A program made the translations under genes and the position numbers. A DNA stretch of 64,000 nt from Massalongia carnosa (lineage: Eukaryota): NCBI GenBank assembly GCA_965645245.1, contig OZ287068.1, forward strand, positions 2,790,001 through 2,854,000, given 5' to 3'. Positions within the stretch are counted from its first letter, which is position 1, and each line of letters begins with the position of its first letter. The notes below the pieces were generated by a model. That model was given only the letters and a program-made list of their open reading frames with translations, did not search any database and was not told the DNA's origin. Of the stretch, positions 313 to 6,476 are shown piece by piece.

Positions 313-3300
313 ATGCCGTTTAAGCTTAAAGGCCTTTTCCGCTCAAGAGAATCAAGGTCGCAATCATCACTGCCGACGCCTCCCCCGCCGATACCTGAAC
401 AGCCCTGCGGATCCTCCTCACAAGCCGCCGAATCGCAAGACCTAGCCGTCCAACTATCCCAGACGATCATCGGTCCGACATCGACTGCTACAAATATACA
501 AGCTTCTCCAGCACCCATCGGAGAAGGCCAGAACTATGGCGTCAAAGTGCTGTACGATGGTGGCGTGGAGGCGAGTGTCGATATCGTGTTCGTGCACGGG
601 TTGACGGGCAATGCGTATAACACCTGGCTTCATAAGGACAAGGGCACAAGGATGCATTGGCCGAGCGAACTTCTGAAACAAGACTTGCCGGATGCACGCA
701 TTTTGAGCTTTGGCTATGACGCAGATATCGTCAATTTCTGGAACCCAGCATCAAACAGTCGACTGAGCAATCATGCTGAGAATATGGTTGGCGATCTTGT
801 GCGAAAGCGAGAGAGAACGAATTCAGAAGCCAGAAAGATTCTATTTATTGCTCACAGTCTGGGTGGACTTGTTATTGAGCACGCTCTCGGCTATTCGAGG
901 AATACCGCAGATAAGTTCCTTCGTCAGATCGAGCGCTGCACGGCTGGGATAGTCTTTCTGGGAGTTCCGCATTGTGGGTCTGATTTAGCATCATGGGCAA
1001 GCTTCGGGACACGAATGATCAATCTCCTCAAACGCTCAAACTCAGACATCGTAGGAGTATTGAAGCCAGGATCCGAAATGCTTCGCATGGTGGGAAATGA
1101 ATTTCAAAACATCCTCAGACTAAGGAAGGATGAAGGGTCTGAGATCTCAATCACATGTTTCTATGAAGAACTTGGTGTTATAGGGGTTGGAGAAGTATGA
1201 ATGTCAATGAATCACACTAGACGTTGATCCTGATTCGTCTAGATTGTGCCTTTACATTCGGCAGAGATTAGGGGTTATAGCTGTTATGGCATTCACGCAA
1301 ATCACATGGTAATTCGGGTGATGTCATCGGTTGTTCTATTTGCTAATCATCATAGGACATGACAAAGTTCTCAAACCGAGAAGATCACGGATACGACGCC
1401 ATTCTAGGTGAACTTCAGCGCTGGGAAAAGTCAGTTCGCAGAGCATTGGGGAATGATCGACAATCAGGTCAGGCTCGAGTCTTTGTTCATATCCCCCGGT
1501 GATTTTACTTAAGACGTCGCAACCACTTTTAGTGGGTGTTGTCGAGAGCTCAGGATTCCTTCGCCTTGAATTCGTTTTTTAGATACTCAAAAGCTGATCT
1601 TCTTGTTTTTGTCAGCGGTGAATAAAGTCATAGATCAGCGAGAAGATACTTCGACCGGCATAAGGACCGAGATGGGTGACCGCAAACGGCTGACGTCGGG
1701 TACGATGGCCGAGCAGGTCTCGAATCAGTTTGGTGACAGTCATGCTCGGACCAGCCAAGTGGTCCAAGGAAACTTCTACAATGCAGTCTTTAGTCAGTCC
1801 TCTCGCCGCTAACGGTGCTTCAAATCTAACCGAGACCCACATTACAAGACCCCAAAACAACAGCGTGGTCAGACTCCACCGGTCAGTAATCTCATAACAT
1901 ATTGAGCCCCCTTGTCCGCTATGAACGCAGACCTTCGATTTACTACAAGACCAGTGACCACCTAACAGCTCCATATAATGTACACAGATTATAAAACGGC
2001 CAGCCAATGGATGGTGCCTCGTTCCGCCAGCCGTGTCTATACTGGACGAGGAGAGATTGCGGAGCGCCTTGCTCAAGTGCTTTCATTTGATGTCTCGAAG
2101 CCTGCGAAACAACAAAGACTTTTCGTCATCATCGGTATTGGTGGTACAGGCAAGAGCGAAGTCTGTCTGAAGTTTGCCGAAGATCATCGAGACGAGTAAG
2201 TGAAATTAAACGCCTTGCCGATATCCTGCTGACAAGCTAGGTACTGGGGGGTTTTCTGGCTTGACGTTAGGACCACCACCACGGCTGAGCAGGGATATAT
2301 CGAGATAGGGCGACGGTGCGGTGTAACTGAACCGACCCTTGAAAATGTGAAGTCATGGCTAGCCTGCAGTAGTCAACGGTGGCTTCTAATCCTCGACAAT
2401 GCTGATAATCTAGAAATTGACTACTCCGAATATATGCCACCCGGTAGGAGAGGCGACATCTTGCTCACTACACGCAATCCAGAATGCGCTACATACAACA
2501 CCGTGGGACGTGAAACGCTGAGTGGTCTCGAGCCTGAGCTTGCCCGGGAACTCCTACTCCGGGCTAGCTGTACAACAGAGAGTCGGTGGAAGGAAAAAGA
2601 GAAAGCTGCTATGGCAGTTGTCAGAATCCTTGAATCACATACGCTTGCAATTATTCAAGCAGGCGCGTTTATCAGGCAAAAGTTGTGTACTCTCGAGCAG
2701 TATCCGATCATCTTTCAGCAGCAACGAGGGCAGCTTCTGAAGTTTCACTCAAAGCAAAACCTGTCAGTGTATCGCAATGTGTATACGACATTCGAGGTTT
2801 CCGCAGAATATCTTCAGAACTCTAAATTGTCAGAGAATTTGAATGCTTTGAACTTTCTTCATACTCTTGCGTTCATGCATAACAGTGGAATTTCGGAGAC
2901 AATATTTCGGAAAGCTTCTGAATATGCCTCCGAGCTCAAGGAGACGGGGACAAGTAATGACGACGAAGTCTTATCTTTATCCGTGCGTCACGTCGCGAGG
3001 CTGCCGGAATATGCTCAGCAGGGATGGTCTAGGCTTCAAGACCGCTTGCGATGGCGCAAAGCTTGTACAATCTTGGAATCTTTGTCGATCATCACCGTGC
3101 ACGAGAATGACGATTCTATCACTATTACCGCGCATTCTCTGGTGCATGCATGGGCTAAAGAGCGGCAAGACAATCAAAGTCGATGTAGAGCGTGGCAGTC
3201 AGCCGCGACCATCGTCGCGCTATCATGTCAGGGATGGTACTCCTATTGTCCTTTTTTTAGCTTTCTCCTACCTCACGTGCGAGCCTGTGTGAACCACGAA

Positions 3301-6171
3301 ATCGAAGAATACACACAGACCATGTCCGATATCGAAGCTGCTCAAATACTTTTCCAACTTGCGTACGTTCTCTATACCATGAATGAGAGCTCGCTTGCTT
3401 TTCTTGTTCAACGCATCCGCTTGAGGCTGCAAAGTAAATATAGAGCCGATCAGGAAGTAGCACTACAAATCAAAATTTTTACTGGACGAGTATCATTGCA
3501 ACAGGGGAAACATGGAGAGGCGGTTAATGTTTTCAGAAACATTGTCGATTGTCGATCTCGAGCGTCGGCCGAAGACAATTCCTCTAGGCTTGCTTCGCAG
3601 CATGAGCTCGCCGGTGCTTATGAAGCAAACGGGCAAGTTGATGAAGCCGTCGAGCTGCTCGAGCAGGTCGTCAAGGTTGAAGAAAAGCTGGCCGAAGATC
3701 ATCCCTCCCGACTAGCTTCGCAGCATGCGCTCGCCGGTGCTTATCAAGCAAACGGGCAAGTTGATGAAGCCGTCGAGCTGCTCGAGCAGGTCGTCAAGGT
3801 TCAAGAAAAGCTGGCCGAAGATCATCCCTCCCGACTTGCTTCGCAGCATGCGCTCGCCGGTGCTTATCAAGCAAACGGGCAAGTTGATGAAGCCGTCGAG
3901 CTGCTCGAGCACGTCGTCAAGGTTCAAGAAAAGCTGGCCGAAGATCATCCCTCCCGACTTGCTTCGCAGCATGCGCTCGCCGGTGCTTATCAAGCAAACG
4001 GGCAAGTTGATGAAGCCGTCGAGCTGCTCGAGCAGGTCGTCAAGATTAAAGAAAAGCTGGCCGAAGATCATCCCTCCCGACTTGCTTCGCAGCATGCGCT
4101 CGCCGGTGCTTATCAAGCAAACGGGCAAGTTGATGAAGCCGTCGAGCTGCTCGAGCACGTCGTCAAGGTTCAAGAAAAGCTGGCCGAAGATCATCCCTCC
4201 CGACTTGCTTCGCAGCATGCGCTCGCCGGTGCTTATCAAGCAAACGGGCAAGTTGATGAAGCCGTCGAGCTGCTCGAGCAGGTCGTCAAGATTAAAGAAA
4301 AGCTGGCCGAAGATCATCCCTCCCGACTTGCTTCGCAGCATGCGCTCGCCGGTGCTTATCAAGCAAACGGGCAAGTTGATGAAGCCGTCGAGCTGCTCGA
4401 GCACGTCGTCAAGGTTCATGAAAAGCTGGCCGAAGATCATCCCTCTCGACTTGCTTCGCAGCATGCGCTCGCCGGTGCTTATCAAGCAAACGGGCAAGTT
4501 GATGAAGCCGTCGAGCTGCTCGAGCACGTCGTCAAGGTTCAAGAAAAGCTGGCCGAAGATCATCCCTCCCGACTTGCTTCGCAGCATGAGCTCGCCGGTG
4601 CTTATCAAGCAAACGGGCAAGTTGATGAAGCCGTCGAGCTGCTCGAGCACGTCGTCAAGGTTCAAGAAAAGCTGGCCGAAGATCATCCCTCCCGACTTGC
4701 TTCGCAGCATGCGCTCGCCGGTGCTTATCAAGCAAACGGGCAAGTTGCTGAAGCCGTCGAGCTGCTCGAGCAGGTCGTCAAGGTTGAAGAAAAGCTGGCC
4801 GAAGATCATCCCTCCCGACTTGCTTCGCAGCATGAGCTCGCCGGTGCTTATCAAGCAAACGGGCAAGTTGATGAAGCCGTCGAGCTGCTCGAGCACGTCG
4901 TCAAGGTTCAAAGAAAGCTGACCGAAGATCATCCCTCCCGACTTGCTTCGCAGCATGCGCTCGCCGGTGCTTATCAAGCAAACGGGCAAGTTGATGAAGC
5001 CGTCGAGCTGCTCGAGCAGGTCGTCAAGGTTGAAGAAAAGCTGGCCGAAGATCATCCCTCCCGACTTGCTTCGCAGCATGCGCTCGCCGGTGCTTATCAA
5101 GCAAACGGGCAAGTTGATGAAGCCGTCGAGCTGCTCGAGCACGTCGTCAAGGTTCGTAAAAAGCTGGCCGAAGATCATCCCTCCCGACTTGCTTCGCAGC
5201 ATGCGCTCGCCGGTGCTTATCAAGCAAACGGGCAAGTTGATGAAGCCGTCGAGCTGCTCGAGCAGGTCGTCAAGATTAAAGAAAAGCTGGCCGAAGATCA
5301 TCCCTCCCGACTTGCTTCGCAGCATGCGCTCGCCGGTGCTTATCAAGCAAACGGGCAAGTTGATGAAGCCGTCGAGCTGCTCGAGCACGTCGTCAAGATT
5401 AAAGAAAAGCTGGCCGAAGATCATCCCTCCCGACTTGCTTCGCAGCATGCGCTCGCCGGTGCTTATCAAGCAAACGGGCAAGTTGATGAAGCCGTCGAGC
5501 TGCTCGAGCAGGTCGTCAAGGTTGAAGAAAAGCTGGCCGAAGATCATCCCTCCCGACTTGCTTCGCAGCATGCGCTCGCCGGTGCTTATCAAGCAAATGG
5601 GCAAGTTGATGAAGCCGTCGAGCTGCTCGAGCACGTCGTCAAGGTTGAAGAAAAGCTGGCCGAAGATCATCCCTCCCGACTTGCTTCGCAGCATGCGCTC
5701 GCCGGTGCTTATCAAGCAAACGGGCAAGTTGATGAAGCCGTCGAGCTGCTCGAGCACGTCGTCAAGGTTCAAGAAAAGCTGGCCGAAGATCATCCCTCCC
5801 GACTTGCTTCGCAGCATGCGCTCGCCGGTGCTTATCAAGCAAACGGGCAAGTTGATGAAGCCGTCGAGCTGCTCGAGCAGGTCGTCAAGATTAAAGAAAA
5901 GCTGGCCGAAGATCATCCCTCCCGACTTGCTTCGCAGCATGCGCTCGCCGGTGCTTATCAAGCAAACGGGCAAGTTGATGAAGCCGTCGAGCTGCTCGAG
6001 CAGGTCGTCAAGGTTGAAGAAAAGCTGGCCGAAGATCATCCTGACCGACTTGCTTCGCAGCATGCGCTCGCCGGTGCTTATCAAGCAAACGGGCAAGTTG
6101 ATGAAGCCGTCGAGCTGCTCGAGCACGTCGTTAAGGTTCAAGAAAAGCTGGCCGAAGATCATTCCTCTTGA
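313..6171 (+). CDS. Fungal NLR: SesB-like alpha/beta hydrolase + NB-ARC (STAND) + TPR array; 6 predicted exons (313-1194, 1243-1308, 1356-1467, 1616-1792, 1988-2195, 2241-6171), 1791 aa
   Basis: Hydrolase motifs IVFVHGLTG, AHSLGG and HANHMDM; Walker A GIGGTGKS; Walker B WLLILDNAD; 41-aa TPR repeats. GT..AG introns with CTRAY-like branch sites join all exons in frame (5376 nt). Confidence 0.85.
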
Positions 6172-6476
6172 CTTGCTTCGCAGCATGCGCTCGCCGGTGC
6201 TTATCAAGCAAACGGGCAAGTTGATGAAGCCGTCGAGCTGCTCGAGCAGGTCGTCAAGCTTAAAGAAAAGCTGGCCGAAGATCATCCTGACCGCCTTGCT
6301 TCGCAGCATGCGCTCGCCGGTGCTTATCAAGCAAACGGGCAAGTTGATGAAGCCGTCGAGCAGCTCGAGCACGTCGTCAAGGTTAGTAAAAAGCTGGCCG
6401 AAGATCATCCCTCTCGACTTGCTTCGCAGCATGAGCTCGCCGGTGCTTATCAAGCAAACGGGCAAGTTGACGAGGC
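3568..6476 (+). repeat. Tandem array of ~23.6 near-identical 123-bp units encoding 41-aa TPR repeats
   Basis: Unit AEDHPSRLASQH[A/E]LAGAYQANGQVDEAVELLE[Q/H]VVK[V/I]xEKL repeats with a strict 123-bp period from 3568. Confidence 0.97.

Follow-up and report, generated by a model that had tools for sequence, protein, structure and literature searches.

An internal HRAM5-like motif between the hydrolase and NB-ARC-type domains of a lichen SesB-NLR family

Section 17 of PMC3321046 treats the interconversion of all-in-one NLRs and NLRs wired to a separate effector gene as an open question. A locus of Massalongia carnosa raises it within a single gene. The preliminary description of a 64,000-nucleotide stretch of contig OZ287068.1 (positions 2,790,001 to 2,854,000; hereafter the window) proposed that an amyloid-like peptide between a hydrolase and an NB-ARC domain is shared by two products of one gene, made by intron retention and internal starts. 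Here, we ask whether the peptide is conserved, what kind of motif it resembles, and whether it would act within one protein or between separate ones.

The gene and its copies

Positions 313-6171 of the window (plus strand) hold one fungal NLR gene, in which a linker joins a SesB-like hydrolase to an NB-ARC-type domain with a P-loop and a TPR array follows; its closest named relatives are proteins of lichen-forming ascomycetes. Pfam identified the N-terminal domain as a DUF676 alpha/beta-hydrolase (38.4 bits versus a cut-off of 20.3), and the GxSxG nucleophile motif is intact (residues 180-185 of the model), as in the N-terminal hydrolase of a SesB-like NLR. The P-loop is found at residue 473, and the NOD domain shares one reading frame with the C-terminal repeats, which were matched by TPR_10/12. 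The Pfam NB-ARC model had no match on the split exons of the window; PF00931 is present in homologues. A seven-exon model is open across 1802 amino acids and closes at a premature TGA. The features, in window coordinates, are as follows.

313..1194, plus strand: exon 1, Pro/Ser-rich N-terminus and most of the SesB-like hydrolase (DUF676, GxSxG)
1243..1308, plus strand: exon 2, hydrolase; splice sites kept in all lineages compared
1356..1467, plus strand: exon 3, end of the hydrolase and start of the linker
1468..1615, plus strand: intron 3, 148 nt; missing in group C (defined below), 88 nt in the motif-less paralogs
1616..1792, plus strand: exon 4, a fast-evolving stretch of linker, then Met1705 and the motif
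1705..1707, plus strand: candidate internal ATG, at model residue 384, with A at -3 and G at +4
1717..1791, plus strand: HRAM5-like single repeat (the repeat itself spans about 1717-1776, the conserved block 1723-1791)
1793..1848, plus strand: intron 4, 56 nt; donor GTCAGT, branch site 1826-1830, AAG acceptor 1846-1848
1849..1881, plus strand: exon 5, an in-frame micro-exon of 33 nt, conserved in length and fast-evolving in sequence
1882..1987, plus strand: intron 5, 106 nt; common to the motif-less paralogs
1988..2195, plus strand: exon 6, start of the NB-ARC with the P-loop (residue 473)
2241..6171, plus strand: exon 7, remaining NB-ARC, helical domains, and TPR array; the TGA lies inside a repeat
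3567..6470, plus strand: high-identity TPR array, 123-nt period, 23.6 copies, 96% matches; untranslated beyond 6171 in the window copy

With the TGA at 6169-6171, the window copy loses its last two to three TPR repeats and the C-terminus.

The peptide at 1705-1791 lies where the preliminary description had placed it, behind a Met and in frame with the upstream hydrolase exons, with DUF676 on one side and the P-loop exon and then the TPRs on the other. The donor at 1793 and the readthrough to a TAA at 1810-1812 after six codons were likewise confirmed. The single 195-nt intron drawn from 1793 to 1987 had to be revised, because sequence comparison indicates two introns (1793-1848 and 1882-1987) around a conserved 33-nt exon. 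The branch site, the AAG acceptor, this exon, and the second donor are kept in all four motif-bearing lineages with DNA. The micro-exon gave a separate tblastn match (82% in L061-L065); the paralogs without the motif read it as coding sequence, and the predicted proteins P0121 and P0003 each contain a counterpart. With a micro-exon and conserved splice signals inside it, we rejected the 195-nt intron as the main splice; a junction from 1793 to 1987 would be an in-frame exon-skipping product.

Four copies in the genome carry the motif, one internal copy each: the window gene, L005 (C2), L006 (C7), and L007 (C15). L005 is an intact inverted copy 54 kb away, with an open last exon and 19 repeats, and L006 is frameshifted by a 1-nt insertion near the equivalent of window position 2688. 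The 5'-truncated pseudogene L007 has a degenerate motif and lies beside PIF1-helicase and copia-type ORFs. Two C7 paralogs (L073 and L074), at 78-79% in the hydrolase exon and with an open last exon of 906 amino acids, are without the equivalent of approximately 1685-1846, that is, the motif and the following intron together, and read directly into the next coding segment. Because these paralogs are intact without it, the motif is not essential to the family. In a hydrolase tree of 16 rows, the motif-less paralog fell into one group with four motif bearers (80/95) that leaves Sticta out; this sequence-based topology weakly favours loss of the motif in the paralogs. The NB-ARC tree (13 rows, with P0004, P0006, P0143, and P0144 left out because they lack the anchor) has a polytomy at the node in question.

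Just upstream of the window copy, a stretch that is missing from L005 holds a Tc1/mariner-type transposase (L008, 5536-7144; DDE_3, HTH_Tnp_Tc3_2), and a DDE_3 ORF is also found upstream of both L073 and L074. The NLR copies have the appearance of recent duplications associated with transposons. Genome-wide, there are 118 SesB-like exon matches, 25 HeLo matches, and 16 HeLo-like matches, many of them in near-identical multi-copy families.

Conservation and identity of the linker peptide

The preliminary description had made conservation in homologues a test of its proposal, and the peptide is indeed kept across lineages where the flanking linker is not. A metagenome scan with motif-derived patterns yielded 189 candidate stretches, 12 of which were confirmed; they fall into three lichen-fungal lineages with approximately 88, 82, and 70% nucleotide identity, and all 12 have the order hydrolase-motif-NB-ARC. 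The most distant motif-bearing lineage, group C (L067-L072), is the one with ~70% identity to the window. The same fused architecture was found in P0121 from Stereocaulon, which carries the motif, and in P0003 from Sticta, whose degenerate motif has a score reached by 0 of 5000 shuffles. Stereocaulon and Sticta belong to different lichen orders. The public gene model of P0121 starts late, within the hydrolase, and apparently reads through intron 5, which is likely a mis-annotation.

Between the window and group C, 18 of 23 motif residues are identical compared with 6 of 28 in the flanking linker (Fisher p = 7e-5; p = 0.007 without the 8 search-pattern residues), a conservation that is partly ascertained because group C was retrieved through motif-derived patterns. 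Identity is 0.76 in the hydrolase and 0.67 in the NB-ARC. In the motif, 7 of 55.7 non-synonymous sites (13%) and 10 of 13.3 synonymous sites (75%) have changed, giving a pN/pS of 0.17-0.24 against near-saturated synonymous divergence. As far as substitution counts can tell, this shows that the motif is under purifying selection. The three closer lineages add no support for selection: their motif counts are very small, and pN/pS comes to 0.5-1.0. The window copy itself differs from the motif family at three motif positions.

Five close homologues with a visible linker were found without use of the motif. Two of these carry it (P0121, and P0003 in degenerate form), in a third the peptide is a different one, rich in G/N, and the remaining two show no such peptide, although their gene models may skip the motif. 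A profile search of 1.84 billion representatives returned eight short ORFs, all with the linker upstream of the motif, and a word-based search with the linker alignment returned P0121 alone (1 of 76 candidates). On these alignments, the linker peptide is real, conserved, and not a product of chance, and it is about as conserved as the hydrolase.

By its pattern, with F-G and Q-G hallmarks, the motif resembles a single HRAM5/HELLF-like repeat. HRAM5 is marked by QxFG and QG (bioRxiv 2020.07.06.188508), and supplement 2 of PMC4518210 tabulates an HRAM group with F-G and Q-G sub-motifs; this Q18 group is HRAM4 in the 2015 text (PMC4518210) and HRAM5 in the HELLF paper. In our alignment of 11 rows, Q-G is invariant, as are Ala10, Ser at repeat position 14, and the Gly at HRAM position 19 that belongs to the general HRAM definition (PMC4518210, section 5). 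The QxFG sub-motif is incomplete, with F in 8 rows, G in 10, and Q in none (N in 9, S in 2). No row has the preferred R/K at position 15, and the repeat is 20 residues long throughout, compared with 21 in HRAMs. If one gap is allowed, the hydrophobic core reads F/L/Y at position 5, Ala at position 10, and V/M at position 16 in all 11 rows, with S/T/N at position 8; without the gap, most positions fail. Natural repeats of the QG group have an equal one-residue gap (PMC4518210, supplement 2, rows 36, 38, 40, 61, and 63), and the same table includes r0 exceptions with Thr at position 8 (row 61) and Gln at position 15 (row 36). We call the motif HRAM5-like and not a member of HRAM5, because it is one residue short and its hallmark Q is replaced, so that two defining features fail.

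A degenerate motif pattern had seven control matches genome-wide, or ~1e-5 per exon-sized stretch, for a pattern that was shaped after the fact. No Pfam amyloid family matched the motif stretches, nor did NACHT_sigma or Ses_B, and on inspection, the sigma/PP/PUASM patterns GxQxG and FxGxGxQ are absent from the motif. Against PDB sequences, the motif profile had a single match, attributed to chance (E = 1.7), and matched no solved amyloid chain, and the ESM Atlas had no usable match or cluster. No exact motif word occurs in the searched supplements of PMC9815663, a set without files 9 and 10; the HMM/FASTA files of that paper may hold a matching profile. The comparison supports the preliminary description in taking the conserved peptide for an amyloid-signalling-like motif, with HRAM5/HELLF repeats as the closest by pattern.

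Other G/N/Q-rich, amyloid-like linker peptides were seen by eye in 8 of 120 SesB-NLR homologues (P0002, P0050, P0051, P0070, P0078, P0080, P0089, and P0118), and no Pfam amyloid family was shown for these eight. Internal motifs may be recurrent among SesB NLRs. Two related NB-ARC-TPR proteins, P0145 and P0196, have a short amyloid-like stretch at the N-terminus, and for P0196 this stretch corresponds to an r0 entry of PMC4518210 supplement 2 (rows 35/42), which indicates that this NB-ARC group includes ordinary motif-NLRs.

A role in cis and its alternatives

The most likely explanation, to which we give roughly even credence, is an all-in-one NLR whose linker repeat works in cis, as an internal switch or scaffold. 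This explanation builds on the observed architecture, exon structure, conservation, selection, pattern, and paralog dispensability; folding, activation, and cell death are steps that we infer by analogy. Following the model of NWD2/HET-S and FNT1/HELLF, a ligand on the TPRs would cause oligomerisation of the NB-ARC domains. The clustered repeats, one per subunit, could then stack in register into a beta-solenoid, which would lock the oligomer and bring together or release the hydrolase domains ~45 residues upstream. Stacked repeats might also recruit unliganded copies and motif-sharing paralogs. Lipase output would thereby be amplified and all-or-none, with regulated cell death as a probable outcome, for which SBP offers a further analogy. 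Internal motifs as oligomer scaffolds have been proposed in sections 28 and 40 of PMC9815663. Against an amyloid acting in cis are the N or S in place of the hallmark Q in 11/11 rows, the missing R/K15, the S/T/N at position 8, and the failure to match any profile searched. The cis explanation accounts for the conserved Met and the AAG acceptor only as inheritance: our preferred reading is that an exon with the motif once formed the N-terminus of an NLR and came to be placed behind the hydrolase, leaving the Met in front of the motif and the intron behind it as traces.

The proposal with which this locus was first described is a one-locus, two-component system, which we regard as unlikely. Retention of intron 4 would yield hydrolase plus motif (419 amino acids), and/or a start at Met1705 would yield motif plus NLR (1419 amino acids), with amyloid templating between these products or to the full-length protein. 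In a regulated form, unlikely to a similar degree and likewise drawn from sequence features, retention of an intron with a weak acceptor would let one motif copy serve both receptor and effector; splicing would set the gain of a cell-death switch, and the Met route would operate in most lineages. The intron position directly after the motif is conserved in 4/4 lineages, and its AAG acceptor is present in 4/4 lineages versus 1 of 19 other intron cases. AAG acceptors are rare. Motif and intron were also lost jointly in the paralogs, and there is a precedent for a single HRAM on an enzymatic effector (NLR12 on PNP_UDP; PMC9815663, section 24).

The early in-frame stop, which had been presented as distinctive, proved ordinary: a stop within six codons follows retention of 4 of the 6 window introns and occurs in 9 of 19 other intron-by-lineage cases. 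Intron 4 has such a stop in 4/4 lineages, in group C with a TAA/TAG exchange and at a shifted position, and the same holds for 6 of the 7 representative ORFs that could be interpreted. The excess is marginal (binomial p = 0.047 against all other introns and 0.12 against phase-1 introns; the rows are not independent), and a phase-1 GTTAG donor gives an early stop automatically. Compared with group C, 4 of 6 bases at +7 to +12 of intron 4 are kept and 0-3 of 6 in other introns, too few to weigh. No AATAAA occurs within ~450 nt after the intron 4 stop in any of the four lineages, so a retained transcript would have a 3' UTR of ~4.5 kb and would be a likely NMD target.

Of the two internal starts suggested, Met1672 was rejected because it is not conserved. 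Met1705 fared better: 10 of the 11 rows in the alignment have it, a count biased by the inclusion of the Met in the search profile; it lies six residues before the motif Asn, and N-terminal HRAMs sit at positions 5-9 (PMC9815663, section 19). However, group C retains the motif without this Met and without intron 3. Furthermore, the features that suggest isoforms would be expected equally from an ancestral N-terminal motif exon, as under the cis explanation.

A constraint unrelated to amyloid, such as autoinhibition by a beta-hairpin or docking motif packed against the hydrolase or NB-ARC, or splicing signals at the exon end, is in our view a rather improbable account of the conservation. It would fit the several failed HRAM positions, the absence of a profile match, the Trp conserved in 8/11 rows, which is no HRAM5 feature, and the low synonymous divergence of the motif among the closer lineages (3/13.8 versus 0.45 in the hydrolase). 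Against group C, however, synonymous sites are near saturation and the residues are kept, which points to constraint at the protein level. The spacing of F-G, Ser, and Q-G agrees with HRAM5 repeats, and the clean loss in intact paralogs speaks against an integral structural element.

Doubtful, and slightly more so, is an internal r0 that would template a separate, unlinked HeLo-like or other HRAM5-type effector, with the gene's own hydrolase acting in cis and the second effector in trans. In its favour, the motif is most closely related to HRAM5 repeats from HELL effector/NLR pairs, control of two effectors by a single NLR is reported in PMC5485727, and unlinked pairs are suspected. Such an effector would carry one more motif copy, and none was found in our searches, which have limited sensitivity for diverged or intron-split repeats. 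In its own genome, all four matches of the protein searches are the known copies, and three DNA patterns gave only these and chance-looking matches (those other than the known copies among L054, L058-L060, L077-L085, and L090-L099 were rejected as chance contexts). The motif is absent from the HeLo-like and HeLo loci examined with their 1.5-kb flanks (16/16 and 20/25, respectively, one locus being covered in part), and no partner was seen among neighbour genes in the metagenome loci. On C17, a HeLo gene lies close to one of the SesB-like type; it was considered as a partner and rejected, as it has no motif. Thus, the free copy at an NLR N-terminus or effector C-terminus that the preliminary description suggested looking for did not appear in the genome or the metagenome loci. 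Two-component systems have the motif on separate, usually adjacent genes; here, each gene has one internal copy, in the four copies of this genome and in 12/12 metagenome loci.

Finally, it is highly improbable that the motif is the functionless vestige of a two-gene system or a transient fusion intermediate, as had been suggested: two paralogs have lost it, the versions in Sticta and the C15 pseudogene are degenerate, and that of the window copy is altered at three positions, but the pN/pS of 0.17-0.24 over near-saturated synonymous divergence and the retention across named genera contradict an intermediate, and the best reading is a stable fused architecture.

Known systems and significance

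The nearest counterpart of the repeat is FNT1/HELLF of Podospora anserina (HRAM5; bioRxiv 2020.07.06.188508, PMC7889193), where FNT1 is Pa_3_9910, a PFD/NB-ARC/TPR protein (PMC4986451). As described there, FNT1 also has a single F-G/Q-G repeat before an NB-ARC-TPR receptor, with a Met a few residues upstream. The window repeat differs in being internal, behind a hydrolase in the same frame, in its N/S for Q, and in being one residue shorter; its gene also has no adjacent HELL effector with two repeats. In domain order, hydrolase motif, TPR array, and paralog expansion, the gene agrees with all-in-one SesB-like/NB-ARC/TPR NLRs such as Pa_2_10340, as presented in PMC4986451 and PMC12258605. Compared with these, the window family adds a conserved amyloid-type linker motif at an exon end, followed by an intron and a micro-exon.

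Internal motifs between an effector and a NOD domain have already been reported for other effector/motif pairs. The cases given in the consulted sections of PMC9815663 are a BaMLKL-motif-NACHT-TPR protein in Fibularhizoctonia, four HeLo-like proteins with sigma, and one with PP. They share with the window gene a motif between the effector and the nucleotide-binding domain, for which a scaffold role is proposed there, and differ in their pore-forming effectors, NACHT domains, and other motifs; those sections contain no SesB plus HRAM5-like case, selection analysis, or isoform model. SesB/HET-eN (sigma) and SBP/PNT1 (PP), as described in PMC5485727 and PMC3321046, also wire a SesB-type hydrolase with a motif on its C-terminal side to an NLR. 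These systems comprise two to three genes with at least two copies of a sigma or PP motif and no HRAM, whereas the window has one gene with one copy.

In the literature searched, which lay mostly outside subscription papers, we found no SesB NLR with an internal HRAM-type motif and no isoform-based amyloid signalling. Within that literature, this is the first HRAM-type motif linked to a SesB hydrolase, and the HRAM5-like internal motif of the lichen SesB-NLR family is apparently undescribed so far. Internal motifs have until now been noted only in passing. This family provides a clean test set, with motif-bearing and motif-less paralogs in one genome and a selected motif without a visible partner, in which cis amyloid scaffolding becomes directly testable. 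If isoforms exist, alternative RNA processing would be a third wiring mode of amyloid signalling.
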